A model generated the notes under the pieces. It made no database searches and was not told the DNA's origin. It was given only the letters and a program-made list of their open reading frames with translations. The translations under genes and the position numbers were made by a program. From Actinomycetota bacterium (GTDB taxonomy: Bacteria; Actinomycetota; UBA4738; HRBIN12), in contig DASWAT010000083.1 of the NCBI GenBank assembly GCA_036390995.1, positions 3,052 through 67,051 on the forward strand: a stretch of DNA of 64,000 nt, written 5' to 3'. Shown in pieces: positions 7,233 through 43,971 of this stretch (position 1 is its first letter; each line of letters begins with the position of its first letter).

Positions 7233-7289
7233 CAGCTCCCCGCGGAGGGCTCCGGTCGGAGCCCCGGGGAGCACCCGCGCTGAGCCGGG

Positions 7290-7505: not shown

Positions 7506-7562
7506 GACCGGAACCTCCGTGGACGCTTACCCTTGATTTCTAGCGCGCCGGACGGCCGCTGG

Positions 7563-9558: not shown

Positions 9559-9598
9559 GACTTCGGGCTCTACGGGGTGAGGCTCATCTGGTAAGGGG

Positions 9599-12105: not shown

Positions 12106-12106
12106 G

Positions 12107-12565
12107 TCACGTCGCCCCCGGCCACCTGCTGGGTTCGAACGTGAACACGATCACGGTCCCCAGCACGAAGAGCACGAACCCGACGATGTAGAAGAACATG
12201 TTCACCACGAAGCGCCAGGCCACCGGCCGCACGTAGTCCTGCACGACGACGCGGAGCCCGTTGATCCCGTGCAGCAGGGCGAGCGAGAGCAGCGCCCAGT
12301 CCCAGGTGCGCCAGAACGGGCTCTGCCACCGGGTTGCCACGAAGCCGAAATCCACCCGACCGACCCCGCCACCGACGACGTGCATGATCAGCACGTGACC
12401 CACGACCAGGAACAGCAGCACGATGCCGCTGATGCGCATGAACAGCCAGGTCCACAGCTCCCAGCCTCCGGCCGGCCGATCCCGGCCGCTCCGATACCCC
12501 AGGATGGATCCGCCGCGCGGAGCGGGGTTCTCGGCTGCCGGTCGGCTCTCGGTCCGTGTGGCCAT
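12107..12565 (-). CDS. sdhD: Succinate dehydrogenase membrane anchor subunit
   Basis: 152 aa, three TM helices with a His-containing helix ([11 protein letters not shown]). ATG 12565-12563 overlaps the sdhC stop by 1 nt (TGATG). Confidence 0.7.
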
Positions 12566-12966
12566 CACAGGTTCCAATGGAGGGCGAGGTCGAGGATGTC
12601 CTTGCCCATGATCCAGGTGATCGGGACCATGCTGAGCACGAAGATGCCGGTGCTGGCGAGGGAGATCGCCTTGAAGTGGCGGGTGGAGCTCGGCCAGAAG
12701 TCGAACACCATGATCTTGACGCCGTTGATCGCGTGGTACATGACCGCAGCGACGAGCCCGAGCTCGAGGATCCGCACCGCCCAGTTCTCGTAGACCGACA
12801 CCACGCGATCGTAGGCATGAGGGCCCCAGCCGATGACTGCGGTGTCGATGACATGCGCGAACAGGAAGAGGATGACTGCGACGCCGGTGATCCGATGGGC
12901 GATCCAGGACCATTGCCCCGGACTGCCCCTGTACAGCGTCCCGACGTCGGTCTTCCGTTTCGCCAT
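12565..12966 (-). CDS. sdhC: Succinate dehydrogenase cytochrome b subunit
   Basis: 133 aa, HRITGVAVILFLFAHV heme-ligand helix. First gene of the sdhCDAB operon. Confidence 0.75.
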   Translation of the reverse strand: MAKRKTDVGTLYRGSPGQWSWIAHRITGVAVILFLFAHVIDTAVIGWGPHAYDRVVSVYENWAVRILELGLVAAVMYHAINGVKIMVFDFWPSSTRHFKAISLASTGIFVLSMVPITWIMGKDILDLALHWNL

Positions 12967-15209: not shown

Positions 15210-15216
15210 TGGACCC

Positions 15217-16269
15217 CTACGCGGTGCGGGCGCCGGCCGGCGGCGTCCCCGCCGAGGCCGGTCCGAGCTCGATCATCCGCTCCACGGCGCGGCGGGCCCT
15301 GGCCGCGACCTCGTCCGGGACGGTGATCTCGAACACGCCCTCGCGGAGGGAGCGCAGCAACTTGTCCGGGGTGATGGTCTTCATGAACCGGCACACGGCG
15401 TCCTCGTCCACCGGATCGAACGTCTTGCCCGGCGCGGCCTTCCGCAGCTGGTGGAGGATCCCGGTCTCGGTGGCGACGAGGAAGCGCGAAGCCGAGGACC
15501 GGGCGGCCTCGGCCACCATGCCGCCGGTGGAGAGCACCTTCGTGCGCTCGGCGGGGAGCACCCCTTCCGACAGGAGCCAGAGCGCCGTGGTGGTGCACCC
15601 ACACTCCGGGTGGATCATGAGCTCCGCCTCGGGGTCCTCGGCCGCCCTGCCCTCGAGCTTCTGCGGGTCGATCGCGGCATGCACGTGGCACTCGCCCATC
15701 CACACCTGCATCTTCCGTCCGGTCACACGTTCCACGTGCGCGCCGAGGAACATGTCCGGCAGGAACAGGATCTCCCGGTCCTCGGGGATCGATCCCACGA
15801 CGTCGACGGCGTTCGAGGAGGTGCAGCACACGTCGGACTCGGCCTTCACCTCGGCCGTGGTGTTCACGTAGGCCACGACGACCGCGCCGGGGTGCTCGTC
15901 CTTCCACGCCCGGAGCTGGTCGGCGGTGATCGAGTCGGCGAGCGAGCACCCGGCCCCGAGGTCCGGGAGCAGCACGGTCTTGTCCGGGGACAGGAGCTTC
16001 GCCGTCTCGGCCATGAAGTGCACGCCGCAGAACACGATGACATCGGCATCGGTGGCCGCGGCCTGCCGCGACAGCGCGAGCGAGTCGCCCACGAAGTCCG
16101 CGACGTCCTGGATCCAGGGCACCTGGTAGTTGTGGGCCAGGATCACCGCGTTCCGTTCCTCGGCCAGGCGCCGGACCTCGGCCGCCCATGCGGCGAAATC
16201 CCTGCCCGCGCCGTTCCGCTCAGCCGCGTGCGTCTTCGTCCACATCGAGGACCTCCAGCGAGATGTCAA
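15217..16269 (-). CDS. nadA: Quinolinate synthase
   Basis: [10 protein letters not shown], the Fe-S Cys ligands ([22 protein letters not shown]). The start may be the second Met (16245). Confidence 0.85.
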
Positions 16270-17662: not shown

Positions 17663-19246
17663 ATGGAGCCCGAGCAGCGCCGTCTCACCGATGCCGGGAT
17701 CGAGATCCGCCCCCTGTACGGCCCGGAGGATCCGCCCGGTTTCGACCCCGAACGCGATCTCGGAGCCCCCGGCGAGGCGCCGTTCACGCGCGGGGTGTAC
17801 CCGTCGATGTACCGCGGTCGCCTGTGGACGATGCGCCAGTACGCGGGCATGGCCACGGCCGAGGAGACGAACCGGCGCTTCCGGTATCTCCTCGATCGCG
17901 GCCAGACCGGGTTGTCGGTGGCCTTCGACCTGCCCACGCAGATGGGTTACGACTCCGACCACCCGCGCTCTGAGGGCGAGGTCGGCAAGACCGGCGTGGC
18001 CGTCGACTCGATCGACGACATGCGCCGCCTGCTCGAGGGGATCCCCCTCGACCGCGTCTCGACCTCGATGACGATCAACGCGACCGCGCCGATCCTGCTG
18101 CTCCTGTACGAGCTGGTGGCCGAAGAACGGGGGATCGACGCGTCGCTGCTGTCCGGCACCGTCCAGAACGATCTGCTGAAGGAGTACGCGGCCCGAGGCA
18201 CGTACATCTACCCGCCGACGCCGTCGATGCGCATCATCACGGACCTATTCGCCTATTGCCACGACCGCATCCCCCGCTGGAACACCATCTCGATCAGCGG
18301 GTATCACATGCGCGAGGCCGGATCCACGGCCGTCCAGGAGGTGGCGTTCACCCTGGCGAACGGGATCGCGTATGTCCGCGCGGCCCTCGACGCCGGACTC
18401 GAGGTGGACGACTTCGCTCCGCGCCTCTCGTTCTTCTTCGCCTGCCACATGCACTTCTTCGAGGAGGTTGCGAAGTTCCGGGCCGCGCGGCGGATGTGGG
18501 CGCGCATCATGACCGAGCGGTTCGGCGCGAAGGATCCGAGAAGCGCGATGCTGCGGTTCCACACCCAGACCGGAGGCGCCACGCTCACCGCGCAACAGCC
18601 CGAGAACAACGTCGTCCGCACCGCATACGAGGCCCTGGCCGCCGTCCTCGGCGGCACGCAGTCGTTGCACACGAACTCGTTCGACGAGGCCCTCGCGCTT
18701 CCCACCGAGCACGCCGTGAAGATCGCGCTCCGGACCCAGCAGATCCTGGGGTACGAGACCGGTGTTCCCGACACCGCCGACCCGCTCGGCGGTTCGTACT
18801 TCGTGGAGTCGTTGACGAACGAGATCGAGGCGCGAGCAGCTGAGTACCTCGACAAGATCGAGGGTCTGGGCGGCGCCGTGGCCGCGATCGAGCAGGGCTT
18901 CTATCAGGACGAGATCCACGAGGCCGCGTTCCGGATCCAGCAGGGCGTCGAGAGCGGCGAGCGGGTGGTGGTGGGCGTGAACCGCTTCCGGGACCCGCAG
19001 GAGCGGCCCGTCGAGATCCAGCGCATCGGGGAGGAGGAGGTCGCCGCTCAGATCGACCGGGTGAGGCAGCTCCGGGCGACCCGGGATCGAACCGCCGTTG
19101 ACCGGGCCCTCGCGGCCGTCGAGGCGGCGGGGAGGGGCACGGAGAACCTGCTCCCGCCGATCAAGGAGTCCCTCCGGGCCCGGGCCACGCTCGGTGAGGT
19201 CTCGGACGTCCTCCGAGGCGTGTTCGGCGAGCATCGCCCCCGGTAG
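17663..19246 (+). CDS. Methylmalonyl-CoA mutase-family catalytic (large) subunit without B12-binding domain (IcmA/McmA-N type)
   Basis: 527 aa, strongly similar to the isobutyryl-/methylmalonyl-CoA mutase TIM-barrel domain ([75 protein letters not shown]). No C-terminal cobalamin domain. Confidence 0.85.
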
Positions 19247-20092: not shown

Positions 20093-21817
20093 TCAGTCGA
20101 TGACGGCGATGGTCTCGCCGGGCTGCACCACCTGACCGGCCGAGATCGGCAGGTCCGAGACGATGCCGTCCCGGGGCGCGGGGATCGCGTTCTCCATCTT
20201 CATGGCCTCGAGGATGCACACGACGTCGCCGGCCGCGATCTCCTGCCCTTGCTCCACCAGCACCCGCAGGATCGTTCCCTGCATCGGCGCTGCCACCAGG
20301 CTGTGCACGTGCTCGCCGTGTGCGGCGGCGTGCCGGGACGGCTGCTTCGGAGCCGTGTCCCTCCGGTGGTCGAAGATGCGGATCGGCACGCGCCGGCCGT
20401 CCAGCTCCACGAGCAGCTCGGCCGGGACGGGTTGCCTGGCCTCGACCGGCGGGAGCGCCACCGCCGGCGCCGGCAGCACCGCGCGGCGCAGTGCCCCTTC
20501 CAGCCAGGTGGTGGTGTGCGAGCCCTCGCGGAACTCCGGCGTCCCCAGGACCCACTCGTGGAGCGGGATCGTGGTGGGGACGCCCTCGACCCGGTACTCG
20601 CCGAGGGCCCGGAGCATCCGCCGCCGGGCGCGCTCGCGATCCTGCCCCGAGACGATCGCCTTGGCGAACATCGAGTCGTAGTCCGCGGGGACCTCCTTGC
20701 CCTCCCGGACGTAGGAGTCCACCCGCACGAACGGCCCCGAGGGCTCGCGGTAGCCCAGGATCCGGCCCGGCCCCGGGAGGAAGTTCTTCGAGGGATCCTC
20801 GGCGTTGATCCGGCACTGGATCGCGTGCCCCTGGGGCCGGACGGAGGACAGGTCGATCCGCTCGCCCATGGTCACCGCGATCTGCAGGGCCACGAGGTCG
20901 AGGCCGGTCACCATCTCGGTCACGGTGTGCTCCACCTGGAGCCGGGTGTTCATCTCCAGGAAGTAGTAGTTGCCGTCGTCGTCGACGATGCCCTCGACGG
21001 TGCCCGCGTTCGTGTAGCCGGCCTCCTTCGCCAAGGCCATCGCGGCCTCGCCGATCCGCGACCGGAGCTCCGCATCGACGACGGGCGATGGCGTCTCCTC
21101 GACGAGCTTCTGGTGGCGGCGCTGGACCGAGCAGTCCCGCTCGCCCAGGAAGAACACGTTGCCGTGGTGATCGGCCAGGATCTGCGCCTCGACGTGGTGG
21201 GCGCGCTCGACGTAGCGCTCGAGGAAGACCTCGGGCCGGCCGAAGTACGCCTTGGCCTCGCGGGCGGCCCGGGCCAGGGCCGGGTCGAGCTCGTCGGGGG
21301 AGCGAACCACGTGCATCCCTCGCCCGCCGCCCCCGAACGCCGCCTTCACCAGGATAGGGAAGCCGATCCGCTCGGCGTGCCGGCGCGCTTGCTTCAAGGT
21401 GACCGGTTCCGGGGTCCCCGGGATGATCGGCACGCCGACCCGGTCGGCGGCCTGCCGGGCCGCGGACTTGTCGCCCATCATGTCGATCGCCTCGGCCGGC
21501 GGTCCGATGAACAGGAAGCCAGACTCCTCCACCGCGCGGGCGAAGTGCGCTCGTTCGGACAGGAACCCGTAGCCCGGGTGCACGGCCGTGGCCTTCGCCT
21601 TGCGTGCGGCCTCGAGGATCGCCCCGATCGACAGGTAGGAGTCGGCCGGCAGGGGAGGTCCGATCCGGTAGGCAGCGTCGGCCATCTCGACGTGCATCGA
21701 GTCCCGGTCGGCGTCGGAGTACACGGCGATCGAGCGGTGGCCGAGCTCGCGGATCGTCCGGATGATCCGGACCGCGATCTCTCCTCGGTTCGCGACCAGT
21801 ATGCGGGTCTTCGGCAC
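20093..21817 (-). CDS. Acetyl/propionyl-CoA carboxylase alpha subunit (biotin carboxylase + BCCP)
   Basis: GTG at 21817 with a GGAG 7 nt upstream, then KTRILVANRGEIAVR. ATP-grasp motifs (GGGGRGM, EMNTRLQVEH) and the C-terminal biotinyl motif EAMKMEN. The upstream in-frame extension to 22618 is GC read-through. Confidence 0.85.
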   Translation of the reverse strand: MPKTRILVANRGEIAVRIIRTIRELGHRSIAVYSDADRDSMHVEMADAAYRIGPPLPADSYLSIGAILEAARKAKATAVHPGYGFLSERAHFARAVEESGFLFIGPPAEAIDMMGDKSAARQAADRVGVPIIPGTPEPVTLKQARRHAERIGFPILVKAAFGGGGRGMHVVRSPDELDPALARAAREAKAYFGRPEVFLERYVERAHHVEAQILADHHGNVFFLGERDCSVQRRHQKLVEETPSPVVDAELRSRIGEAAMALAKEAGYTNAGTVEGIVDDDGNYYFLEMNTRLQVEHTVTEMVTGLDLVALQIAVTMGERIDLSSVRPQGHAIQCRINAEDPSKNFLPGPGRILGYREPSGPFVRVDSYVREGKEVPADYDSMFAKAIVSGQDRERARRRMLRALGEYRVEGVPTTIPLHEWVLGTPEFREGSHTTTWLEGALRRAVLPAPAVALPPVEARQPVPAELLVELDGRRVPIRIFDHRRDTAPKQPSRHAAAHGEHVHSLVAAPMQGTILRVLVEQGQEIAAGDVVCILEAMKMENAIPAPRDGIVSDLPISAGQVVQPGETIAVID

Positions 21818-21835
21818 GGGTGGCTCCAGGCTGCG

Positions 21836-22627
21836 ATGATTCCTCGTCACCCGAACGGGAGTCAAACGTTGCCGCTGTCCGAACTCGCCCTCACGCACGC
21901 GCTCGAACGGATCGGCGTCCGTGCCCCCGTTCGGTTCGAGGAGGTTACTCGTTCGACCCAGGCGGCGGCCCTGGGGTTGGCCGCGGAGGGTGCTCCCGAG
22001 TGGAGCATCGTGGCCGCCGGGCACCAGACCGAGGGCAGGGGACGCCTGGGCCGGACGTGGGTGGACGAGCCGGGCGCGGCGCTCATGTTCTCCGTCGTGC
22101 TGCGGCCCGATCTCGACCCCGCCAGCGGCGGCCTGATCCCGCTTTTGGCGGGGTGGGCCATGGCCGTCGCCTGCCGCGAGCTGGCGGGGGCCGACGTCGG
22201 CTGCAAGTGGCCGAACGACCTGCTCCTGGGCGAGGAGAAGGTCGGCGGGCTCCTCGCCGAGTCCCAGATCGACGCCGGCCGCTTCGCCTTCATCGTGCTC
22301 GGCGTCGGCGTGAACCTCTCCGCGGCTCCCGTGGAGGTTCCGGGGGCAGGAGCCCTGGGCCCGGTCGCGCCGGAGGAGCTGCTCGGACGCTTCCTGGAGG
22401 TCTTCGCCAGGAGGTACGAGCCCGCCCACCCGGCGTTCGCGGGGGCGGTCGCGGCCGCCTACCGAGAGGTGTGCCTCACGCTGGGCCGCCACGTCCGGGC
22501 CACCGGCACGGACGGCACCGACTTCGAGGGCGAGGCGATCGACGTCGACGAGACCGGTGCCCTCGTGGTCCGCACGGCCTCCGGCCTCGAGCCGGTCCGC
22601 TCCGGCGAGATCGAGCACCTCCGCTAG
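21836..22627 (+). CDS. birA: Biotin--[acetyl-CoA-carboxylase] ligase (group I, no DNA-binding domain)
   Basis: GHQTEGRGRLGRTW (the GRGRxGR biotin-binding loop) and KWPNDLLL. Divergent from the carboxylase alpha-subunit gene with an 18-bp gap. Confidence 0.8.
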   Translation: MIPRHPNGSQTLPLSELALTHALERIGVRAPVRFEEVTRSTQAAALGLAAEGAPEWSIVAAGHQTEGRGRLGRTWVDEPGAALMFSVVLRPDLDPASGGLIPLLAGWAMAVACRELAGADVGCKWPNDLLLGEEKVGGLLAESQIDAGRFAFIVLGVGVNLSAAPVEVPGAGALGPVAPEELLGRFLEVFARRYEPAHPAFAGAVAAAYREVCLTLGRHVRATGTDGTDFEGEAIDVDETGALVVRTASGLEPVRSGEIEHLR

Positions 22628-22632
22628 CGTGA

Positions 22633-23301
22633 TTGCCGCGGGGCGGCGCGCGCGGTAGCGTCCGAGCCGTGGCGTTCCCGCGGAGGCTGCTGGTCGACGG
22701 CGAGGAGCTGATCCTCGACCTCCGTCCCCATTGGATCGCCCTGGTGGGCCCCGTGTTCGTCACGCTGCTGGTGGTGGTGGGCTACATCCTCGCCCTGGTC
22801 TACGCGCCCGACTCGGGCGCCGCGCGCGCCACGGTGGTCTGGGGCGGGTTGGCCCTCGGCGTGCTGATCCTGCTGTGGTACCCCGTGCGCAAGGCGGTGG
22901 CGTGGGCGACGTCTCACTTCGTGGTGACGAGCGACCGCGTGATCCACCGGCAGGGGTGGATCGCGAAGTCGTCGATGGAGATCCCGCTGGAGGCCATCAA
23001 CGACGTCCGGTTCCACCAGGGCGTGTTCGAGCGGGTCATCGGGGCCGGGGACCTCATCATCGAGTCCGCGGGCGAGCGGGGCACGAACGCCTTCTCGGAC
23101 ATCCGTCATCCCGAAGATGTCCAGAAGACGATCTACCACCAGGGCGAGCTCAACCAGCAGCGGATGATGCGAGGCGCGGGGCCGGGACCGTCCGCGCCGT
23201 CCACCACGGGCGAGCTGGAGCGCCTGGTCGCCCTCCGCGACCGGGGCATCCTCACGCCCGAGGAGTTCGAGGCCCAGAAGCGGAAGATCCTCGGCAGCTA
23301 G
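22633..23301 (+). CDS. Membrane-anchored bacterial PH (bPH_2/YdbS-like) domain protein with C-terminal SHOCT motif
   Basis: Two TM helices, then the PH-like VTSDRVIHRQGWIAKSSMEIPLEAINDVRFHQG and a C-terminal LERLVALRDRGILTPEEFEAQKRKIL (SHOCT). Confidence 0.5.
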   Translation: MPRGGARGSVRAVAFPRRLLVDGEELILDLRPHWIALVGPVFVTLLVVVGYILALVYAPDSGAARATVVWGGLALGVLILLWYPVRKAVAWATSHFVVTSDRVIHRQGWIAKSSMEIPLEAINDVRFHQGVFERVIGAGDLIIESAGERGTNAFSDIRHPEDVQKTIYHQGELNQQRMMRGAGPGPSAPSTTGELERLVALRDRGILTPEEFEAQKRKILGS

Positions 23302-23375
23302 TCTGTCCCAGACTAGCCGTCCCGGCCGCCCCCCGCCGTTCGCCGGTGCGGGCGTTCGGTGATAGAACCGGACAC

Positions 23376-24545
23376 GTGGAACCGCGCGTCGCCGTGATCG
23401 GCATCGGACATTGCGGGTTCGCGCCCATCACGGCGGGGCTCTCCTACAAGGAGCTGATGTTCGAAGCGGCGCAGCGCGCCTATGACGACGCCGGCGTCGA
23501 TCCTCGGCAGGACATCGACTCGTTCGTCTGCTGCTCCGAGGACTTCTTGGAGGGCACGAGCATCTTCGACGAGTACGTGCCGGACCAGCTCGGTGCCGTC
23601 CGCCGGCCCGTGCAGACCGTGGCCGGCGACGGGCTGTTCGGGATCGCCACCGGGATGATGCTGATCCGCTCGGGCGTGGCCCGTGTCGTGGCGGTCGAGG
23701 CCCACAGCAAGGGCTCGGACGTGCGCACCCTCGGCGCGATCGAGCGGTTCGCGCTGGACCCGGTCTTCAACCGGCCGGTGCTGCCGTCGGTGCTGGCCGT
23801 CGCCGGCCTCGACATGAACGCGTTCCTCGAGCGGACCGGGCTGTCCGAGGAGCACTGCGCGATCGTTGCGGCGAAGAACCGCCGGAACGCGCTCGACAAC
23901 CCCCGGGCCGCGTACCCGGCCGACCTGGACGCGGAGGACGTGGACGACTCCGCGCCTGCGTACTGGCCGCTCCGCGAGCTCGAGATCGCCGCGCCGGCCG
24001 ACGGCTGTGTCGTGGCGGTCCTCGCCGTCGAAGAGCTCGCCCGTGAGCTGACCGAGGCGCCGGTGTGGATCCTCGGAGCGGGATGGTCGTCGGGGAGCCC
24101 GACGCTCGAGAGCCGGACCTGGGGCGAGGCCGACACCGTCCGCCGGGCCGCCGAGCGCGCCTACGCGATGGCGGGCATCGGGGACCCGGGCGAGGAGGTG
24201 GACCTGGCGGAGCTCGACGACACGTACGCGTACCGGGAGCTGCAGCACCTCGAGGCGCTCGGTCTGGCCACCGCGGAGGAGCTCCCGGGCTTGCTCGAGG
24301 AGGGCGAGCTGGAGCCCGACGGCGACCTGCCGGTGAACGTGTCCGGTGGGGCGCTCGGGCAGGGGAACCTGTTCGAGGGCAACGGCCTGGCCCGCCTGCA
24401 GGAATGCACGGAGCAGCTGCGAGGCGAGGCCGGTGAGCGGCAGGTGGACGAGGTCTACACGGCGGTCGCGCAGTCGTGGCCGGGCGTGCCGTCGACGTCG
24501 GCCGCGGTCGTCGTCCTCGCGAACGACGAGGGGGCGGGCGGGTGA
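23376..24545 (+). CDS. Thiolase-like protein (SCP-x / nonspecific lipid-transfer type)
   Basis: GTG at 23376 (VEPRVAVIGIGHCGF). Thiolase fold with CSEDF and GGALGQGN-type motifs. 389 aa. Confidence 0.7.
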   Translation: MEPRVAVIGIGHCGFAPITAGLSYKELMFEAAQRAYDDAGVDPRQDIDSFVCCSEDFLEGTSIFDEYVPDQLGAVRRPVQTVAGDGLFGIATGMMLIRSGVARVVAVEAHSKGSDVRTLGAIERFALDPVFNRPVLPSVLAVAGLDMNAFLERTGLSEEHCAIVAAKNRRNALDNPRAAYPADLDAEDVDDSAPAYWPLRELEIAAPADGCVVAVLAVEELARELTEAPVWILGAGWSSGSPTLESRTWGEADTVRRAAERAYAMAGIGDPGEEVDLAELDDTYAYRELQHLEALGLATAEELPGLLEEGELEPDGDLPVNVSGGALGQGNLFEGNGLARLQECTEQLRGEAGERQVDEVYTAVAQSWPGVPSTSAAVVVLANDEGAGG

Positions 24546-24898
24546 GCCTGGAGGCCTTGGACCACGTGTGGTTCTGGGTCGCCGACATGGACCGGGCCGT
24601 GGCCTTCTACACGGACGTGCTGGGTCTGCGGCTGGTTCGCCGCGACGGGGACGAGTGGGCGGAGTTCCAGGCCGGGGGGAGTCGGCTGGCGCTCCACGGG
24701 GCCGGCCCCGGATCCGTACCCGGCGGGACGGTGGTCTTCCGGGTGAACGATCTGACCGCGGCAAGGGCTGGTCTCGAGGCGCGCGGGGTCTCGTTCGATC
24801 ACGCGGGCGAGGTCGACCGCTACGCGAGCTACGCGACCTTCCGGGACCCGTTCGGCAACGGGCTGCAGCTGATCGAGTACGCGGAGGTGGCCCGCTGA
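24542..24898 (+). CDS. VOC/glyoxalase-family protein
   Basis: GTG 24542 overlaps the thiolase stop (GTGA). LDHVWFWVADMDRAVAFYTDVLGL...FRDPFGNGLQL, the glyoxalase/bleomycin-resistance fold. Confidence 0.6.
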   Translation: MSLEALDHVWFWVADMDRAVAFYTDVLGLRLVRRDGDEWAEFQAGGSRLALHGAGPGSVPGGTVVFRVNDLTAARAGLEARGVSFDHAGEVDRYASYATFRDPFGNGLQLIEYAEVAR

Positions 24899-26625
24899 TG
24901 GCGCGACGGGTCGCGGTGGTCGGGGCCGGCATGACCAGGTTCATGCGACGGGCCCAGGAGACCGGCAAGGAGCTCGCGTGGGAGGCGGCCCGCGCCGCGC
25001 TGGACTCGTGCGAGCTGTCGCTCCGCGACGTCGACGGCGTGTGCCTGACCTCGGGGCCGGACGCGTTCGACGGCGTGCACATGAAGGGCGAGTACCTGTC
25101 CGACGGGGCGGGGGCGTTCGGCAAGCCGTTCATCCGGACCTACGTGGGCGGCGGCAGCGGCGTGTTCACGGCGATCCAGGGGTGGTACTCGGTGGCCAGC
25201 GGGATGTTCGACGTGGCCCTGGTGGTGGCCGAGGAGAAGATGTCCTCGACCCAGCCCCACCCGCAGGGCGCGTTCCTCACGATCTTCGACAACGTCCTGG
25301 AGCGCCCGCTCGGCCCGAACCTCCTGTGGATCTTCGCGCTCGAGATGAACCGCTACATGACGGTGCACGGGCTCGACAAGCGCGACATCGCCGCCGTGGC
25401 CGTGAAGAACAAGCGCAACGCCGCCGACCATCCCGCGGCGTTGCTCGGCGACCGCGACATCACCGTCGACGACGTGCTGGCCTCCGAGACGCTCGCGTGG
25501 CCGGTGCAGCGCCTCGACGTGTCGCCGATCTCGGACGGAGCGGTGGCGCTCGTGGTGGCCTCGGAGGAGGCGGCCCGCCGGATCACCGACCGGCCGGTGT
25601 GGATCGACGGCGTCGGGTGGAACCTCGACACCGCGTACTGGACGAACCGCGATCTGGTCTTCCCCGAGTACGTCGCGAACGCCGCCCGCATGGCTTACGA
25701 GATGGCCGGCATCACCGAGCCGCGCAAACAGATCCACGTGGCGGAGCCCTACGACCCCTTCGACTACAAGGAGCTCCACCACCTCGAGGGTCTGCTGCTC
25801 TTCGACAGGGGCAAGGCGCCCGAGGCCGCTCGCGACGGCATCCTGGACCGCGACGGCGACCTTCCCAGCTGCCCGTCGGGGGGCCTGCTCGGGGTGGGCA
25901 ACCCGATCGCCGCGGCGGGCCTCATGAAGATCGCCGAGCTCTTCTGGCAGCTGCGCGGCGAAGCCGGCGCCCGCCAGGTCCCCGGCACTCCCGAGCGCGG
26001 TGTCGCGCAAGCCTGGGGCGATCTCATGCAGGTCGGAACCGTCGTCGTCATGGGTGCCGATGGTGCTCGCGGGGGCGGGGCGACACACCCGACGACCGGC
26101 GAGACGAAGCTGCCGGTGGTGCAGACGCCTCCGTACACGATGGGCGGGCATCCGCTGTCCGATGCGGAGTTCCGATCGGCCGTGGGGGCCGTGGACGACG
26201 CCGTGGACGCCCGGTACGCGTGGGACGCGGGTGTCGCGATCGGCCGGTTCCTCGACGGGCTCCGGGCCGGGAAGATCGTGGCACGCGTGTGCCATCGGTG
26301 CGAGAGGGTCCTCGTGCCGCCCCGGATGTTCTGCGAGCAGTGCTTCCGCGAGACCGACGGCTGGGCGGAGGTGGAGCCGACCGGGGTCGTCCAGACCTTC
26401 TCGATCTGCCACGTCTCGTGGGACATGCAGCGGCTGGAGGTCCCGGAGATGCCGGCCGTGATCGCGATCGACGGCTCGAGCGGCGGGTTCCTGCACAAGC
26501 TGGGCGAGGTGGAGCCCGGCGATCTCGCGGTGGGGATGGCCGTCGAGGCCGTGTGGAAGCCGGAGGCCGAGCGGACCGGCTCGATCCTCGACATCGCGTA
26601 CTTCCGGCCCCGGAGGGAGGCCTGA
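24898..26625 (+). CDS. Thiolase-like domain fused to C-terminal DUF35 (Zn-ribbon + OB-fold) domain
   Basis: ATG 24898 overlaps the VOC stop (ATGA). N-terminal thiolase fold (MARRVAVVGAGMTRF...), C-terminal DUF35 with CHRCERVLVPPRMFCEQC zinc ribbon. 575 aa. Confidence 0.7.
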   Translation: MARRVAVVGAGMTRFMRRAQETGKELAWEAARAALDSCELSLRDVDGVCLTSGPDAFDGVHMKGEYLSDGAGAFGKPFIRTYVGGGSGVFTAIQGWYSVASGMFDVALVVAEEKMSSTQPHPQGAFLTIFDNVLERPLGPNLLWIFALEMNRYMTVHGLDKRDIAAVAVKNKRNAADHPAALLGDRDITVDDVLASETLAWPVQRLDVSPISDGAVALVVASEEAARRITDRPVWIDGVGWNLDTAYWTNRDLVFPEYVANAARMAYEMAGITEPRKQIHVAEPYDPFDYKELHHLEGLLLFDRGKAPEAARDGILDRDGDLPSCPSGGLLGVGNPIAAAGLMKIAELFWQLRGEAGARQVPGTPERGVAQAWGDLMQVGTVVVMGADGARGGGATHPTTGETKLPVVQTPPYTMGGHPLSDAEFRSAVGAVDDAVDARYAWDAGVAIGRFLDGLRAGKIVARVCHRCERVLVPPRMFCEQCFRETDGWAEVEPTGVVQTFSICHVSWDMQRLEVPEMPAVIAIDGSSGGFLHKLGEVEPGDLAVGMAVEAVWKPEAERTGSILDIAYFRPRREA

Positions 26626-27113
26626 TGCGCGAGAAGATCGCGCGACCGGAGCGGGTGCGCCGCGTGCGGGGGGACATCCCCGTCCGGCACCGCTACACGC
26701 CGGGGGTGGCCGGCGAGGCGTTCTTCGCCGCCCTTCGCGACCGCGGCGTGTTGCTGGGATCCCGGTGCGAGAGCTGCGACTACACGTACGTCCCCGCCCG
26801 GCTGTTCTGCGAGCGCTGCTTCGCTGAGCTCGGCGCGGACGCCGAGGTCGGTCCGGGGGGTGAGCTCGTCTCGTTCACGATCGGGTTCGTGGACGCCGAC
26901 GGCGGGGCGCTCGATCTCCCCGAGACCCTCGGCCTGGTCCGTCTCGACGGGGCGGACGCCCTCCTGGTGCACCGGATCCTCGACCCCGGCGACGAGCCGC
27001 TCGAGATCGGAGAGCGGGTCGAGGCGGTCGTGCGCCCGCCCGAGCAGCGCTCCGGCTCGATCCTCGACCTCGAGGGCTTCCGGCTGGCGGAGGGGGAGCC
27101 GGACGCCGGGTAG
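26625..27113 (+). CDS. Stand-alone DUF35 (Zn-ribbon/OB-fold) protein
   Basis: ATG 26625 overlaps the previous stop (ATGA). CESCDYTYVPARLFCERC zinc ribbon followed by an OB-fold region. Confidence 0.65.
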   Translation: MREKIARPERVRRVRGDIPVRHRYTPGVAGEAFFAALRDRGVLLGSRCESCDYTYVPARLFCERCFAELGADAEVGPGGELVSFTIGFVDADGGALDLPETLGLVRLDGADALLVHRILDPGDEPLEIGERVEAVVRPPEQRSGSILDLEGFRLAEGEPDAG

Positions 27114-27161
27114 GCCCGGCGTCGCCCCGGGCTCGTCGGGTGCCCCACGTATGCTTGCGCG

Positions 27162-30100
27162 ATGAGCCAGGTCAGGTGCGAGCGCTGCGGCGAGCCGCTC
27201 CAGGCGACCGCCCGGTTCTGCCCGAACTGCGGGTTCCCCACCACGGCGCCCCCACCGGAGGAGCGCAAGGTCGTGACCGTCGTGTTCACCGACCTGGTGG
27301 GCTCCACGCAGCTGTCCGCCAGGATCGATCCCGAGGCCTACCGGGAGGTCATCGCCGGCTACTACCAGGCCGTGACCGAGGAGCTCGAGTCGCTCCGGGG
27401 ACGCGCGTACAACTTCGCCGGCGACGCCGTGGTCGGCGTGTTCGGATTGCCGCAGGCCCACGACGACGACGCCCTGCGGGCGATCAGAGCCGGCCTGGCC
27501 GTGGTGGACCGTGTGGAGCGTCTCGGGCGGTCGTTCGGCCTGCCGACGCCTCTCCGCTGCCGGGTCGGCGTGAACACGGGCCCCGTGGCCGTCGGGTCCG
27601 AAGGGGCCGAGCAGGGACTGCTCTTCGGCGCCGCCGTGAACGCGGCGGCGCGCCTGCAACAGGCCGCCGAGCCGGGCACGGTCCTCGTGGGCCAGACCAC
27701 CCGGATGATCACCGAGGACCGGGTGGAGTTCGGACCGGATCTGCTCATCGAGGCGAAGGGCTTCGAGGATCCGCTTCCCGCGTGGCCGGTGGTTGCCCTG
27801 GCCCCCCGCTCGTCGCGCCGGACCATCCCGTTCGTCGACCGCCGACGCGAGCTGCGGCTGCTCCACGACACGTTCGAGCGCGCCGTGGAGGCACGGCGCG
27901 CGCACATGGTGACGTTGTTCGGCGAGCCCGGGATCGGGAAGAGCCGGGTGATCGACGAGTTCGTGGCCACGCTCCCCGAGGGGACGAAGGTGCTCACCGG
28001 CAGGGCGAGCCCGTTCGAGGAGGACGTCACGTTCTCGCCGGTCGGGCAGATGCTGCTCCAGGAGCTCGGGGAGCCCCCCGACGCGCCGAAGCAGGAGCTG
28101 CAGCTACGCCTCGAGGAGGTCGTCGTCTCGTGCTGCTCGCCCGACCGCTCGCAGGAGATCGTCGCGCGGCTGGGTCACGCGCTCGGGCTGGTCGACGAAC
28201 CGCGGGAGGAGCGCCGGTCCCGCGTGGCCGAGATCCGGGCGGGCCTGCTCGCGTTCCTCGAGGGCCTCGCGGCTCAAGGGCCGGTGGTCCTCGTGTTCGA
28301 GGACCTTCACCTGGCCGAGCCGCAGCTCCTCGACCTGGTGGAGGAGACCGTCCGCGAGGCTCGGGGCGTGCCGCTGTTCGTCCTGTGCGCCGCCCGGTAC
28401 GACCTCCTGGACGAGCGCCCGGCGTGGGGCGGTGGCCTCGGCGACTCGCTGAACCTGTACCTGGAGTCGATGTCGCTGGAGGATGCCACCGAGCTGGCGC
28501 TGGAGGCGGGGGAGGGTCTGGATCCGCGCACGGCCGAGCGGATCGCCCGGCACGCCGGGGGGAACCCGTTCTTCATCGTAGAGACCACGGGGATGTTCCT
28601 GCACCTGGGGGCGGAGCTGCCCTCCGACACGGGACCGATGCCGCAGGCGCTGTTGCCTCCGACCGTGCAGGCCGTGATCGCGTCTCGGATCGACCACCTG
28701 CCCGCCGACGCGCGCGACCTCATCCGCAAGGCGTCGGTCTTCGCGCGCTCGAGGTTCGACCTCTCCGAGCTCCAGCTGATCGCCGATCCGAACGAGAAGG
28801 TGCTCGCCCTGTTGGAGGACGAGGAGCTCCTCGTCCCCGATCCCGAGCGCCCGGGCGTGTGGCGGTTCCGGCACGGGATGGTCCGCGACGTGGCCTACGA
28901 GAGCCTGCCCAAGCGCGAGCGCCAGCGGCTGCACCTGCTGGTCGCGGATCGGCTCTCCCGGGACCCCTCGACGGCGGCCCGCTACCCACGATCGATCGCT
29001 TACCACCTGGAGCAGGCCGCCCGCGCCTCGCTGGACCTGAACCCCTCGGACCGGTCGCTGGCCGATCGAGCCGTGGAGGCGCTCGCGCACGCAGGCCATC
29101 TGGCGCTCGACGGGTCGGAGCCGCGACCCGCCGCCGACCTGTTCGAGCGGGCCATCGCCCTGGCGGGGCCCGGGTCCGGATGGGGAGGCCGGGAGGCCGA
29201 CGTGCTGGCCCACCTCGGCGAGGCCCGCTACTGGCTGGGCGAGTTCGAGGCCGCCGTCCCGCCGCTCGGCCGCGCGCTCGAGCTGGCCCCGGGTGACCTG
29301 CCGATCCAGGCGCACGCGACCCGGTTCCTCGGCGACATCGAGCTGTCGATCCGCGGCAACCGCGAGCGGGCCGAGGAGCTGTTCGACCGCGCGCTGGCCT
29401 CGGCGCGCGAGCTCGGCGATCCCCGCACCCTGGCCCGGACGCTGCTGACCGCGGCCTGGGCGCCGTACTGGCGGGACGACCTGGACGCGACCAGAGCGAT
29501 GTTCGAGGAGGCGCTGCGAGTGGCCCGGGCCACCCGCGGCGGGGATCCGTGGGCGGAGGCCCGGGCCCTGAGCTCGCTGGCCGCCGTGGTCTCGGAGGTC
29601 GGCGACGAGGACGAGGCATTCGCGCTCGCATCGGAGTCGCTGGCCATCGCGGAGGCCAAGGGGGATCGGTTCGCGATGGCGGTGGCGCGCCAGGAGGTGG
29701 GGGACGCGCTCCGGCACATGTGGAGGCTGGCCGACGCCCTGCCGCACCTCGACAGGTCGGTCGACGCGTTCCGCGAGCTCGGCGCCCGGTGGGAGCTCGC
29801 CAGCGCGCTCACGTCGCGGGGCGTCCTGCACCGGCACGCCGGGCGGATCGACCAGGCGGTCCGGGACCTCCGGGAGGCCTACCGCCTCTGCCGCGAGCTG
29901 AGGGAGCGGAGCATCCTCACGTGGACGGCGCGCTCGCTGGCCGTGGCCCTGGTGATGGCGGAGGACCTGCCCGGGGCCAGAGCCTTGATCGAGGAGACGG
30001 CCACCGTGGCCCAGCCCGAGGGTCCGGGTGCCAGCGAGTGGCTCACCGACGCCGAGATCGTCCTCCTGCTCGCGGGGGGCGACGAGGCGGGGGCCCGGGA

Positions 30101-30299
30101 CCGGGCGATGGAGCTGCTCGCGATCGAGCGCGACCGCGGCCGGGAGAAGGAGATCGCGGGCAGGGTGTGGCTCGTCGGCCGGGTGTTCGGCCCCGACCTG
30201 GTCGGTGGCCAGGATGAGCTCGAACGCGCCCACAAGGTGCTGGCGTCGCTGCACGCCGAGGAGATCCTGCGCGAGCCCGACCTGATCCGGAGGAGGTGA
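27162..30299 (+). CDS. Zinc-ribbon / class III adenylate-guanylate cyclase / STAND (NB-ARC-like AAA) NTPase / TPR multidomain protein
   Basis: N-terminal CERCGEPLQATARFCPNCG double zinc ribbon. Cyclase domain (VVTVVFTDLVGST...FAGDAVVGVFG...GVNTGPV), Walker A GEPGIGKS, Walker B VLVFEDLHLAE, and a long Ala/Leu/Arg-rich TPR-like C-terminus. 1045 aa. Confidence 0.8.
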   Translation: MSQVRCERCGEPLQATARFCPNCGFPTTAPPPEERKVVTVVFTDLVGSTQLSARIDPEAYREVIAGYYQAVTEELESLRGRAYNFAGDAVVGVFGLPQAHDDDALRAIRAGLAVVDRVERLGRSFGLPTPLRCRVGVNTGPVAVGSEGAEQGLLFGAAVNAAARLQQAAEPGTVLVGQTTRMITEDRVEFGPDLLIEAKGFEDPLPAWPVVALAPRSSRRTIPFVDRRRELRLLHDTFERAVEARRAHMVTLFGEPGIGKSRVIDEFVATLPEGTKVLTGRASPFEEDVTFSPVGQMLLQELGEPPDAPKQELQLRLEEVVVSCCSPDRSQEIVARLGHALGLVDEPREERRSRVAEIRAGLLAFLEGLAAQGPVVLVFEDLHLAEPQLLDLVEETVREARGVPLFVLCAARYDLLDERPAWGGGLGDSLNLYLESMSLEDATELALEAGEGLDPRTAERIARHAGGNPFFIVETTGMFLHLGAELPSDTGPMPQALLPPTVQAVIASRIDHLPADARDLIRKASVFARSRFDLSELQLIADPNEKVLALLEDEELLVPDPERPGVWRFRHGMVRDVAYESLPKRERQRLHLLVADRLSRDPSTAARYPRSIAYHLEQAARASLDLNPSDRSLADRAVEALAHAGHLALDGSEPRPAADLFERAIALAGPGSGWGGREADVLAHLGEARYWLGEFEAAVPPLGRALELAPGDLPIQAHATRFLGDIELSIRGNRERAEELFDRALASARELGDPRTLARTLLTAAWAPYWRDDLDATRAMFEEALRVARATRGGDPWAEARALSSLAAVVSEVGDEDEAFALASESLAIAEAKGDRFAMAVARQEVGDALRHMWRLADALPHLDRSVDAFRELGARWELASALTSRGVLHRHAGRIDQAVRDLREAYRLCRELRERSILTWTARSLAVALVMAEDLPGARALIEETATVAQPEGPGASEWLTDAEIVLLLAGGDEAGARDRAMELLAIERDRGREKEIAGRVWLVGRVFGPDLVGGQDELERAHKVLASLHAEEILREPDLIRRR

Positions 30300-30303
30300 G
30301 CGG

Positions 30304-31455
30304 GTGGACTTCGACCTCACGGAGGAGCAGCGTGAGTTCCGCGACGCGGTCCGGGAGTTCGCCGAGGAGGTCGTGGCGCCGCGGATCGCAGAGTTCGATC
30401 GGCGCGAGGAGTTCCCCCTCGAGATCGTGGTGCGCATGGGCGAGCTCGGGCTGTTCGGATTGCCCTTCCCCGAGCGCTACGGCGGGCTCGACGGCGACTT
30501 CCTGACCTTCTGCCTCTGCCTGGAAGAGCTGGCCCGCGTCGACTCCTCGGTGGCCGTCACGCTCGAGGCAGCGGTGGGTCTGGGGGCGAACCCGATCTAC
30601 CGGTTCGGGACCGAGGAGCAGAAGCAGCGGTGGCTCGTCCCGATGTGCCGGGGCCAGGTGCTGGGGGCGTTCGCCCTCACCGAGCCCGGGGGCGGCTCCG
30701 ACGCCCACGCGATCCGCACCACCGCGCGGCTCGAGGGCGACGAGTGGGTGATCGACGGCTCGAAAGCGTTCATCACGAACTCGGGGACGCCGCTGTCGAA
30801 GGTGTGCACGGTCGCGGCGATCACCGGCAACGGGGGCGAGGTCTCGGCGATCCTCGTGCCGACCGACACGCCGGGGCTCACCGTCGGTCCGTCGTACCGG
30901 AAGATCGGCTGGCACGCCAGCGACACGCACGAGCTCGCCTTCTCCGGGTGCCGGGTCCCTCGCGAGAACCTGCTGGGCGAGCAGGGACGCGGCTATGCGC
31001 AGCTCCTCGAGGCGCTCGACGACGGCCGCATCGCCACCGCGGCGATGTCCGTGGGTCTGGCCCGGGGGTGCTTGGAGGAGAGCGTGAAGTACGCGAAGGA
31101 ACGGGAGGCGTTCGGTCGCCCGATCGGCTCGTTCGAGGCCCTGCAGTTCAAGATGGCCGACATGAAGGTGGGGGTCGAGACGGCGCGCCTGGCCTACCTG
31201 AAGGCGGCGTGGCTGAAGGACCGCGGCCGTGCCTACAAGTCCGAGGCCGCGGTGGCCAAGCTGTACGCCAGCGAGATCGCGGTGACGTGCGCGCGCGAGG
31301 CCGTGCAGGTGCACGGTGGCTACGGGTACATCGAGGAGTTCCCCGTCGCGCGGTTCTACCGGGACGCGAAGATCCTCGAGATCGGCGAGGGCACCAGCGA
31401 GATCCAACGGCTCCTGATCGCGCGCGACCTGGGCCTTCCGGGCACCGAGCTGTAG
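30304..31455 (+). CDS. Acyl-CoA dehydrogenase
   Basis: GTG at 30304. MDFDLTEEQREFRDAV..., ALTEPGGGSD, the catalytic YGYIEEFP, and QGGYGY-type motifs. 383 aa. Confidence 0.85.
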   Translation: MDFDLTEEQREFRDAVREFAEEVVAPRIAEFDRREEFPLEIVVRMGELGLFGLPFPERYGGLDGDFLTFCLCLEELARVDSSVAVTLEAAVGLGANPIYRFGTEEQKQRWLVPMCRGQVLGAFALTEPGGGSDAHAIRTTARLEGDEWVIDGSKAFITNSGTPLSKVCTVAAITGNGGEVSAILVPTDTPGLTVGPSYRKIGWHASDTHELAFSGCRVPRENLLGEQGRGYAQLLEALDDGRIATAAMSVGLARGCLEESVKYAKEREAFGRPIGSFEALQFKMADMKVGVETARLAYLKAAWLKDRGRAYKSEAAVAKLYASEIAVTCAREAVQVHGGYGYIEEFPVARFYRDAKILEIGEGTSEIQRLLIARDLGLPGTEL

Positions 31456-31586
31456 GCCTCCCGGCTCAAGGGCGGACCGGCGACCGCCGACGAAGATGGT
31501 TGAACCGGGGGTGGATCCGGGGCACCCTGCTGTGGGCGGGGGAAGGTTGACAATGCTCGGAGCGGTCCGGTAGGAAGGGTCTCCCC

Positions 31587-32750
31587 ATGGCCCACAACCG
31601 AATCCGAACCGGCGGCGTCGTGCGCCGAGCCGCCGTCGTCCTCGCTGTGTTCGCGCTGCTGTCCGGGCTGACGGCCGGAGCCGGCGCAGATCCGAAGCAG
31701 GACCTGCAACAGGCGAAGTCGCGCCTGGCCCAGATCCGAACGGAGATCACGCAGCAGCAGGCCGTGTTGAGCAGGCTGTCCGCACAGGCCGCCGCGCTCG
31801 CGCAGCGGATCGACGAGGCGCAGGGCAAGTACGAGTACATCACGTCGCAGCTCCAGGACACGCGGGCCAAGCTCCTGGACGCCACCCAGCGGTTCCAGGC
31901 GGTCGAGGCCCAGTTGAACTCGCGCGCCCGCGAAACCTACATGCAGGGGCCGGCCAGCCCGCTCGAGTTCCTCCTCGGGGCCACGTCGTTCTCGGACCTG
32001 TCCGACCGGATGGAGTACGTGGGCGCGCTCACGCAGACCGACGCCGACCTGGCGAACCAGGTCCAGAACCTGCGGAACGAGCTCACCGCGCAGCAGCGCG
32101 ACCAGCAGCGCCTCCAGGCCAGGCAGGCGGAGCTGCTGAAGGGCCTGCAGGCCGACCAGGCGCAGCTCGACGCCCAGTTCTCACAGCAGAAGCAGGTCTA
32201 CGACGACATCAAGGCCAAGGAGGCCGAGGCCCAGCAGCTCGTCAGCAAGGCCACCCGCGAGTACCGGCAGTGGCTGAAGTCGCTCAGCGCGCCGGTGAAC
32301 ATCGCCGGCAACCCGCTCCACGTCTGCCCGGTGGACCAGCCGCGCGCCGTGTACGACGGGTTCGGGGCTCCGCGGTACGCCGGCGGGTACCATCCACACG
32401 CCGGCAACGACATCGTCGCGCCGGGGGGAACGCCGATCCGCGCGCCCTTCGACGGCACCGCGCGCGCTTCGTACAACGGCCTCGGCGGCAACGCGGTGTA
32501 CGTCTACGGCTCGGCCGGGTACGTCTACAACGCCCACCTCATGCAGCCCGGCTCCTCGGGCTCGGTCTCGGCCGGCCAGATCATCGGCTACGTCGGCAAC
32601 ACCGGCGACGCGCAGGGGGGCGTGACCCACGACCACTTCGAGTGGCATCCGAACGCGATCCCATCGAACTGGATAGCCAGCCCGTACGGATATTCGGTGA
32701 TCGGCACGGCCATCAACCCGTATCCCTACCTCGAGCAAGTGTGCCGGTAG
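31587..32750 (+). CDS. Secreted M23 family metallopeptidase with N-terminal coiled-coil
   Basis: Signal peptide (AAVVLAVFALLSGLTAGAGA), about 200 aa of Gln/Ala-rich coiled coil, then a LytM/M23 domain (HAGNDIVAPGGTPIRAPFDGT...GNTGDAQGGVTHDHFE). Confidence 0.75.
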   Translation: MAHNRIRTGGVVRRAAVVLAVFALLSGLTAGAGADPKQDLQQAKSRLAQIRTEITQQQAVLSRLSAQAAALAQRIDEAQGKYEYITSQLQDTRAKLLDATQRFQAVEAQLNSRARETYMQGPASPLEFLLGATSFSDLSDRMEYVGALTQTDADLANQVQNLRNELTAQQRDQQRLQARQAELLKGLQADQAQLDAQFSQQKQVYDDIKAKEAEAQQLVSKATREYRQWLKSLSAPVNIAGNPLHVCPVDQPRAVYDGFGAPRYAGGYHPHAGNDIVAPGGTPIRAPFDGTARASYNGLGGNAVYVYGSAGYVYNAHLMQPGSSGSVSAGQIIGYVGNTGDAQGGVTHDHFEWHPNAIPSNWIASPYGYSVIGTAINPYPYLEQVCR

Positions 32751-43943: not shown

Positions 43944-43971
43944 CGGGATCCGATCCTCGCCGGCCTCTGGG

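Follow-up and report, generated by a model that had tools for sequence, protein, structure and literature searches.

Which reaction can be carried out by two thiolase-like proteins that are encoded side by side, that come with two DUF35 modules and that have both lost the catalytic cysteine? This question is raised by four genes (g1-g4, positions 23376-27113, + strand) within a 64,000-nt stretch (~71% GC) of contig DASWAT010000083.1 from an Actinomycetota bacterium, the whole of which was analyzed and is referred to here as the window. An earlier interpretation made from the letters alone (the sequence-only reading) had suggested a multi-subunit complex that forms or cleaves C-C bonds, and the module may indeed act in this way. 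At the GC content of the window long spurious open reading frames (ORFs) are to be expected in every frame, so real genes were told from them by their codon-position GC: g1-g4 have GC1 of 0.71-0.80, GC2 of 0.48-0.49 and GC3 of 0.91-0.95, while the long ORFs that overlap them in other frames lack such a gene-like pattern. The four genes are:

23376-24545, + strand: g1, thiolase-like subunit A, 389 aa; GC3 0.94; Pfam Thiolase_C_1 (1e-31)
24542-24898, + strand: g2, small VOC/glyoxalase-fold protein, 118 aa; Pfam Glyoxalase PF00903 (7e-16, 59 bits)
24898-26625, + strand: g3, thiolase-like subunit B fused to a first DUF35 module (DUF35-1 or D1), 575 aa; Pfam Thiolase_N, Thiolase_C_1, zf-ChsH2 and OB_ChsH2_C; thiolase part aa 1-388, variable linker aa 389-~435, Zn ribbon aa 453-485, OB fold aa 489-554
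26625-27113, + strand: g4, free second DUF35 (DUF35-2 or D2), 162 aa; Pfam zf-ChsH2 and OB_ChsH2_C

The domains named previously for these genes (thiolase, glyoxalase fold, thiolase-DUF35 fusion and free DUF35) were upheld by Pfam, and the label of SCP-x-type thiolase given to g1 holds at the level of fold and family, but not in the sense of an intact thiolase, as its nucleophile loop is deleted. The tight translational coupling of the four genes was also read correctly, including the GTGA at the g1/g2 junction (4-nt overlap); the ATGA overlaps, however, are in fact TGATG at both g2/g3 and g3/g4, where the stop and the ATG have one base in common (1-nt overlap). A scan of 21800-31800 for promoters and terminators was uninformative in DNA this rich in GC.

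Active-site positions of the two thiolase-like proteins

The catalytic positions were assigned by alignment with the solved thiolases 7yvy, 6hsj, 4yzo and 7pxp together with 91 full-length cluster representatives. They are given below for the two proteins, for SCP2 thiolase and for the aldolases Ltp2 and Sal.

Nucleophile position: Cys in SCP2 thiolase, Gly in Ltp2, Gly in Sal, Gly85 in g3; loop deleted in g1 (A-G-D-G)
HDCF motif: H-D-C-F in SCP2 thiolase, Y-D-H-F in Ltp2, Y-D-C-Y in Sal, Y285-D-P-F in g3, D-D-T-Y in g1
G-H-P position: His in SCP2 thiolase, Tyr344 in Ltp2, Gln352 in Sal, Asn335 in g3, Asn in g1

In these alignments the nucleophilic Cys, the acid/base Cys and the catalytic His are all gone from both g1 and g3. 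Gly85 of g3 lies opposite the nucleophilic Cys of 7yvy, and in g1 a 3-residue deletion relative to the SCP2 thiolase 6hsj takes out the Cys loop; a C-terminal CxG cysteine is found in neither, and where thiolases have G-H-P, g3 reads G-N-P and g1 reads G-N-L. A full Cys-His-Cys triad in the thiolase domains, the observation that the sequence-only reading had singled out as speaking against it, is thus kept by neither protein. Without the nucleophilic Cys, subunit B would be unable to perform thiolysis.

The replacements in g3 resemble those of the aldolases. Sal also has a Gly where the nucleophilic Cys would be, and the catalytic base of these enzymes is the Tyr of the motif that corresponds to HDCF of SCP2 thiolases and reads Y-D-H-F in Ltp2 and Y-D-C-Y in Sal (PMC12329534). 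The alignment of g3 with 6hsj puts Y285 opposite the His of HDCF, and N335 follows after 50 residues, the same distance as between Y294 and Y344 in Ltp2, Y302 and Q352 in Sal, and the two His in thiolases. The third position of the motif is Pro287, where Sal has Cys304 and Ltp2 has His296. As the Ltp2 structure (6ok1) ranks low among the matches of g3 and Sal is undetected, the equivalence to both is transitive, through the HDCF motif and this spacing, and Asn335 is matched to Tyr344/Gln352 by spacing alone. Judged by these positions, g3 would carry a third active-site combination (Gly/Tyr/Pro/Asn), apart from those of thiolases, Ltp2 and Sal. Among the 91 nearest full-length representatives, 15 have a Cys near the nucleophile position and 27 show the signature of no Cys, Tyr and Asn; the Cys-less relatives split into a g3-like and a g1-like type.

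In NCBIfam, g3 scored above the cut-off of NF004721 (PRK06065; 632.6 bits, cut-off 455) and g1 just below that of NF004722 (PRK06066; 470 bits, cut-off 516). Both models bear the name 'thiolase domain-containing protein' only, and a literature search on the NCBIfam/PRK identifiers and on 4YZO returned no functional data. Neither g1 nor g3 has a Pfam match to HMG_CoA_synt or ACP_syn_III.

A conserved and duplicated core of four modules

Relatives of g3 at 78-90% identity occupy the top 120 database clusters, every one of them a fusion, and a scan of one genome per species gave at least 583 confirmed relatives. The best 80 of these (at least 583) come from uncultured Actinomycetota metagenome-assembled genomes (MAGs; 73-87% identity), from Chloroflexota (62-69%), from one Bathyarchaeia MAG and from one WOR-3 MAG; the Chloroflexota carriers belong to Anaerolineae, Dehalococcoidia, Chloroflexia and Thermoflexus. 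An exact-sequence look-up of g3 found no match, and a search of a plasmid collection gave distant relatives only (≤34% identity).

Gene neighbourhoods were compared by mapping the window proteins on 82 related loci with tblastn and by calling genes in the distant loci. Wherever a locus extends far enough, it almost always shows the same conserved core in the same order, i.e., thiolase-like A, thiolase-like B, DUF35-1 and DUF35-2, the latter always after DUF35-1; this applies to Actinomycetota and Chloroflexota as well as to the Bathyarchaeia and WOR-3 MAGs, and the recurrence of the order places the four-gene arrangement beyond chance. In Chloroflexota, B (~389 aa) and DUF35-1 (~170 aa) are separate genes followed by DUF35-2 (~155 aa), while the fusion of B with DUF35-1 is restricted to Actinomycetota among the 82 loci; triple fusions B-D1-D2 occur in some Actinomycetota (P0013, P0097 and P0121). 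As separate, fused and triple-fused versions exist, B, D1 and D2 are likely to associate physically, and this Rosetta-stone pattern backs the idea, already present in the sequence-only reading, of a multi-subunit thiolase-fold complex scaffolded by DUF35.

Subunit A is most closely related to the thiolase part of g3 and vice versa (38% identity, E 6e-57), and DUF35-1 and DUF35-2 are paralogues with 38% identity as well; both A/B and D1/D2 would thus have originated when an ancestral pair of thiolase and DUF35 was duplicated long ago. The copies are conserved to very different degrees. Counting as invariant the positions that are at least 97% identical among the orthologues compared, 52% of the positions are invariant in B (thiolase part of g3; 75 orthologues from two phyla) and 11% in A (g1; 71 orthologues), with 23% in DUF35-1 (78 orthologues) and 10% in DUF35-2 (45 orthologues). 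In the same loci B is more strongly conserved than its neighbours, the methylmalonyl-CoA-mutase-like protein, biotin carboxylase and acyl-CoA dehydrogenase, and its invariant stretches take in the motifs E-P-Y-D-P-F-D-Y-K and C-P-S-G-G-L-L-G-V-G-N-P-I-A-A-A-G, which line the active site in thiolases. Because the constraint is asymmetric and the invariant residues of B sit in active-site motifs, we infer that B could be the working subunit and A a degenerate partner.

Both DUF35 modules pass the Pfam cut-offs for a four-Cys rubredoxin-like Zn ribbon followed by an OB fold (PF12172 + PF01796), both copies in the window have CxxC...CxxC, and the best solved relative of g4 is SSO2064 (3irb, 7e-14). 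The fourth zinc-ribbon Cys of DUF35-1 is not invariant, C-E-R-D-F taking the place of C-E-R-C-F in orthologues such as P0013 and P0093. Given this replacement and the Cys3His zinc site of Shy-DUF35 (PMC12329534), the zinc site may vary in the DUF35-1 family of g3 too.

The glyoxalase-fold protein g2, which had been counted as part of the complex, falls outside the conserved core. It is present in the clade of the window and in a few group B loci, but most of the group B Actinomycetota and every Chloroflexota locus lack it; it is a lineage-specific accessory insert between the two thiolase-like genes. Its matches in NCBIfam and among solved structures are all weak. Two of its putative VOC ligands (His8 and Glu41) vary and two (His52 and Glu112) are kept among 35 orthologues, and neither a family-specific model nor the full set of conserved His/Glu ligands on beta1, beta4, beta5 and beta8, which mark a VOC metalloenzyme, was found. 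A function as methylmalonyl-CoA epimerase was considered for g2 and rejected, as no epimerase or glyoxalase I model came near its cut-off, conservation does not extend to all the ligands, and the window has an epimerase-like gene of its own elsewhere:

56679-57098, - strand: VOC protein, 139 aa, Glyoxalase_4 type (Pfam, 91 bits)

This protein has His/Glu at what we take to be the metal-ligand positions of methylmalonyl-CoA epimerase. It is probably the real epimerase of the genome, which disfavours that role for g2.

A second paralogous, Cys-less set lies divergently beside the main module in L074 (5815-8630, - strand) and L080 (5820-8627, - strand), where it consists of a g1-like protein, a g3-like protein and one DUF35 (36-41% identity). 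In L077 (7077-8658, - strand) only the g3-like protein and a DUF35 of such a set were detected (31-32% identity). Downstream of the main module, L074 and L080 also have a TLP1-type thiolase and an enoyl-CoA hydratase.

A proposed heteromer and competing explanations

In the solved complexes Ltp2-ChsH2DUF35, Sal-ShyDUF35, BbsAB and Saci_1121/1120, a thiolase-fold dimer is held between two DUF35 modules (PMC12329534; bioRxiv 10.1101/2024.07.05.601840). What the sequences of the module show directly are its composition and domains, the fusions, the paralogy, the exchanged residues and the uneven constraint; by analogy with the solved complexes we infer its stoichiometry, active subunit, reaction type and substrate class as follows. 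The conserved unit would comprise four modules: A (g1), B (N-terminal part of g3), D1 (C-terminal part of g3) and D2 (g4). A and B would form a pseudo-symmetric heterodimer in which D1 staples B, covalently in this lineage, and D2 staples A. There would be a single active site, located in B, with A as a structural or substrate-shaping partner and the VOC protein g2 as a clade-specific accessory. As the Gly and the Y-D-x-F Tyr that serve retro-aldol cleavage in Ltp2/Sal are kept, B could carry out enolate chemistry without cysteine, most likely of the aldol/retro-aldol (lyase) type on a short-chain beta-hydroxyacyl-CoA. Such a heteromer, with a catalytic B, a degenerate A, two DUF35 staples and cysteine-independent aldol-type chemistry on short-chain acyl-CoA, is the explanation that we favour tentatively, with a probability somewhat below one half.

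Among known systems, the module would work most like the steroid side-chain aldolases Ltp2-ChsH2(DUF35) (TcLtp2, 6ok1) and Sal-Shy(DUF35) (CtSal, PMC12329534), although without their general acid and their hydratase-borne DUF35. They have in common with g3 the SCP2-type fold, the Gly in place of the nucleophilic Cys and the Tyr that comes first in H/Y-D-x-F (Y285), the latter two features being absent from g1, together with an obligatory DUF35 module and, 50 residues beyond the Tyr, a residue whose side chain bears an amide or hydroxyl group. In contrast, g3 has Pro at the third motif position (His in Ltp2, Cys in Sal) and Asn for Tyr344 of Ltp2, and the general acid of Ltp2 (Tyr344) or Sal (the Cys of Y-D-C-Y) has no counterpart in it. 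The DUF35 of these aldolases is part of a MaoC hydratase (ChsH2/Shy), whereas here it is fused to the thiolase-fold protein or free; they have a homodimer and one kind of DUF35, whereas our module combines a diverged pair of thiolase-fold subunits with a diverged pair of DUF35 modules. A steroid gene context is lacking here, and in sequence g3 resembles 6ok1 only distantly (E 1e-24) and Sal goes undetected.

Other complexes share part of this architecture. The archaeal thiolase/HMG-CoA synthase/DUF35 complex and PhlACB likewise combine, in one operon, two different thiolase-superfamily proteins with DUF35, and their homologues are detectable here; they pair a Cys-bearing thiolase or PhlC with HMG-CoA synthase or a KAS III-like partner, whereas in our module both proteins are Cys-less SCP2-thiolase paralogues and the DUF35 modules are two paralogues. 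The benzoylsuccinyl-CoA thiolase BbsAB (7pxp), of which BbsB is the third best solved match of g3, and Saci_1121/1120 of Sulfolobus are alpha2beta2 with one DUF35 per thiolase-fold subunit and provide the proposed template for A-B-D1-D2, but they are true thiolases with a catalytic Cys and identical subunits. ST0096 (4yzo) is a thiolase-like protein in which the aligned nucleophile position is also not Cys, and SSO2064 (3irb) is the best match of the DUF35 modules; neither has an assigned function, and the same is true for NF004721 and NF004722, which moreover model unfused proteins of ~390 aa. The NCBIfam models PRK08256 and PRK07937, which we take to represent Ltp3 and Ltp4, matched weakly here (96-153 bits); the comparison with Ltp3/Ltp4 was made through these models, and sterol genes are absent from our locus. 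Wilbrink et al. reportedly proposed in 2012 an aldol-lyase role for Ltp3/Ltp4 in the removal of C24-branched side chains. Ltp3/Ltp4, which act in actinobacterial sterol catabolism, resemble the module in being encoded by two adjacent thiolase-like genes, both of them genetically required (Wilbrink et al. 2012, cited in PMC10398937).

Several points weigh against the proposed heteromer. Neither in the window nor in the majority of related loci does a hydratase or MaoC gene adjoin the module, while in the known aldolase systems DUF35 is part of the hydratase. Both known proton donors are missing from g3, which has Pro at Cys304 of Sal/His296 of Ltp2 and Asn at Tyr344 of Ltp2. Ltp2 (6ok1) is only the eighth best solved relative of g3, with archaeal true thiolases ranking higher, and Sal goes undetected by sequence, so that the features common to g3 and Ltp2/Sal may be convergent or merely permissive. 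An AlphaFold2 model of g3 (47 homologues, 79-90% identity) was unusable, with a mean pLDDT of 48.9 and a pTM of 0.41. The Chloroflexota neighbourhoods are mostly housekeeping (NusB, Asp23) and uninformative, and the adjacency of an acyl-CoA dehydrogenase gene in Actinomycetota may in part reflect accA/birA/fadE/accD, presumably an old synteny block in mycobacterial genomes, and not a shared function. Finally, the observations would be matched just as well by two homodimers, (A2)(B2), that DUF35 bridges in the manner of the thiolase/HMG-CoA synthase complex.

In a two-enzyme channelling complex, homodimers of A and of B would be bridged by the DUF35 modules and would perform consecutive, non-thiolase steps on one CoA-bound intermediate. 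Two thiolase-fold proteins plus DUF35 is the composition of the solved thiolase/HMG-CoA synthase/DUF35 and PhlACB complexes (PMC6392133), the structures 6esq and 5m3k are among the matches of g1, g3 and g4, and the genes are translationally coupled. We nevertheless consider this explanation unlikely: A is poorly conserved (11% invariant) and its active-site loop is deleted, unlike what would be expected of a second enzyme, neither g1 nor g3 is of the HMG-CoA synthase or KAS III type by Pfam or NCBIfam, and the known complexes have one kind of DUF35 where this one has two.

Slightly less probable again is a cysteine-independent decarboxylase or enolate generator of the KS-Q/chain-length-factor or Trypanosoma brucei SLP (TbSLP) type, acting on malonyl-/methylmalonyl-type CoA esters. 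The loss of the nucleophilic Cys along with the retention of an amide, Asn335, at the oxyanion-hole position would suit it, and the window contains biotin carboxylase, carboxyltransferase, methylmalonyl-CoA mutase and an epimerase-like gene; these carboxylase and mutase genes, however, are housekeeping and unlinked to the module outside the clade of the window. TbSLP does decarboxylate malonyl-CoA, but only at a very low rate, and the authors citing this activity question its relevance (PMC12329534); nothing positive speaks for a malonyl substrate.

That the complex is non-catalytic, serving as an acyl-CoA-binding, carrier, scaffold or regulatory unit that recruits other enzymes, we regard as improbable. 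Every canonical catalytic residue is gone from A and B, and DUF35 is a documented scaffold that recruits reductase and dehydratase in the Sulfolobus fatty-acid synthase complex (bioRxiv 10.1101/2024.07.05.601840), but the strong conservation of B is centred on motifs lining the active site, a pattern more typical of an enzyme. Least credible by far is that the module is a conventional acetyl-CoA C-acetyltransferase or 3-ketoacyl-CoA thiolase. Its proteins do have the fold of thiolases and belong to their family, and relatives are named 'acetyl-CoA C-acetyltransferase' in their source annotations (all of them automatic names), but this reading is contradicted by the sequence, as neither g1 nor g3 has the nucleophilic Cys, the acid/base Cys or the catalytic His, and a canonical Cys-bearing thiolase is encoded at 63216-end.

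Genomic surroundings and meaning of the module

The genes of the surroundings that bear most directly on the module are:

27162-30299, + strand: Zn-ribbon/adenylate-cyclase/AAA/TPR regulator (Pfam), 49 nt after g4 and in the same direction
30304-31455, + strand: short-chain (butyryl-CoA-type) acyl-CoA dehydrogenase (Pfam ACAD N, M and C domains)
63216-63998, + strand: canonical thiolase, cut by the end of the window (Thiolase_N, 310 bits), with the nucleophilic Cys in D-K-V-C-L-S-G

Since the last of these is a canonical, Cys-bearing enzyme, the A/B module would not be the ordinary thiolase of the cell. The regulator gene is a variable insert outside the core, and L012, L019 and L023 of group A, as well as the group B loci, do not have it in the space that separates g4 from the acyl-CoA dehydrogenase. 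It has a paralogue at 53187-56612 (- strand), and both consist of an N-terminal zinc ribbon, an adenylate/guanylate cyclase, an AAA_16 ATPase and TPR repeats.

Among solved structures, the acyl-CoA dehydrogenase matches 7szv best (492 bits) and SCAD/BCAD entries next. In ~12 group B and 3 group A loci it directly adjoins g4, the tblastn matches of the two being 0-20 nt apart, and in the Chloroflexota loci L062 and L068 it lies within ~1-2 kb downstream of DUF35-2; it is a possible pathway partner of the module. An acetate-CoA-ligase-like enzyme is encoded divergently upstream in 22 of the 25 group B loci and directly downstream in L072 (Chloroflexota), and single loci have acetoacetate-CoA ligase, CoA-transferase A/B, enoyl-CoA hydratase, a TLP1-type thiolase or a CitE-like lyase as neighbours. 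The recurrent neighbours point to short-chain acyl-CoA metabolism, with no specific substrate. A role like that of a leucine/HMG-CoA lyase was examined and set aside, as the acyl-CoA dehydrogenase, biotin carboxylase, acetoacetate-CoA ligase and CoA-transferase neighbours are scattered over the loci and are partly housekeeping synteny; compounds of the leucine/HMG-CoA-lyase type are thus one candidate substrate class only. A mevalonate link through a GHMP kinase gene beside the module in L066 (Chloroflexota) was likewise rejected, as this gene is a homoserine kinase (TIGR00191, 232 bits). In seven Chloroflexota loci the module follows asp23-nusB. The Chloroflexia loci L061 (8482-8805, + strand) and L063 (8479-8805, + strand) have a conserved ORF of 107-108 aa between nusB and thiolase-like A, roughly in a place that could suit an accessory gene; Pfam gave no match for the L061 copy, the one scanned.

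The check for nearby enoyl-CoA hydratase or MaoC genes proposed with the sequence-only reading turned out negative: neither domain occurs in the window genes scanned with Pfam, so a hydratase-aldolase unit in the style of ChsH/Ltp2 would not be encoded here. The steroid- or isoprenoid-like setting evoked by the comparisons of that reading is not what the window offers either, its context being core metabolism instead. The window also holds a mutase large subunit, an F420 reductase, a 3-hydroxyacyl-CoA dehydrogenase, biotin carboxylase/BCCP, biotin ligase and carboxyltransferase. A dense run at 188-12966 encodes MTHFR, citrate synthase, two dehydrogenases of the Iso_dh family (isocitrate dehydrogenase), malate dehydrogenase, a two-subunit class I fumarase and succinate dehydrogenase (flavoprotein, Fe-S and two membrane subunits), followed at 13716-16269 by NadB-like and NadA genes. 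The methylmalonyl-CoA-mutase-type large subunit (17663-19246, + strand; 527 aa) matches the model of the N-terminal (substrate) domain alone, so its B12-binding domain would be encoded elsewhere; in L077, labelled Bathyarchaeia, a 60%-identical partial tblastn match to it was seen downstream of the module, as a short fragment at the locus end. The 841-aa ORF at 20093-22618 (- strand) is over-extended, as its biotin carboxylase/BCCP domains start from residue 271 and the orthologue in L001 has 575 aa; its upstream part overlaps a real biotin-protein ligase gene (21977-22627, + strand; BPL_LplA_LipB + BPL_C). At 43647-45834 (- strand) a carboxyltransferase of acyl-CoA carboxylase (529 aa) is followed by two ORFs with gene-like codon bias, one of 88 aa, for which Pfam gave no match, and one of 98 aa; they are possible small subunits of the epsilon type.

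Thiolase-fold proteins combined with DUF35 are versatile C-C machines, used at the archaeal entry to the mevalonate pathway, in archaeal fatty-acid synthesis, by steroid side-chain aldolases and in Friedel-Crafts acylation. The module described here is a duplicated and asymmetrically diverged version of this theme, found in several hundred species-level genomes of abundant, uncultured soil lineages, and its subunit B is among the most constrained proteins of its neighbourhood. Three features come as a surprise: the architecture is duplicated and asymmetric, a subunit without Cys is extremely conserved across phyla, and the module is abundant in uncultured soil lineages. In its boldest form, to which we give a low probability, the idea would be that A-B-D1-D2 is an unrecognised, cysteine-independent C-C enzyme of core short-chain acyl-CoA metabolism, i.e., a lyase or synthase of the aldol/Claisen type that, with Gly/Tyr/Pro/Asn as its third kind of active site, replaces a textbook enzyme in hundreds of uncultured Actinomycetota and Chloroflexota species from soil. 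Assignment of its reaction would mend the widespread misannotation as 'acetyl-CoA C-acetyltransferase' and might reveal a new active-site solution in the thiolase superfamily.

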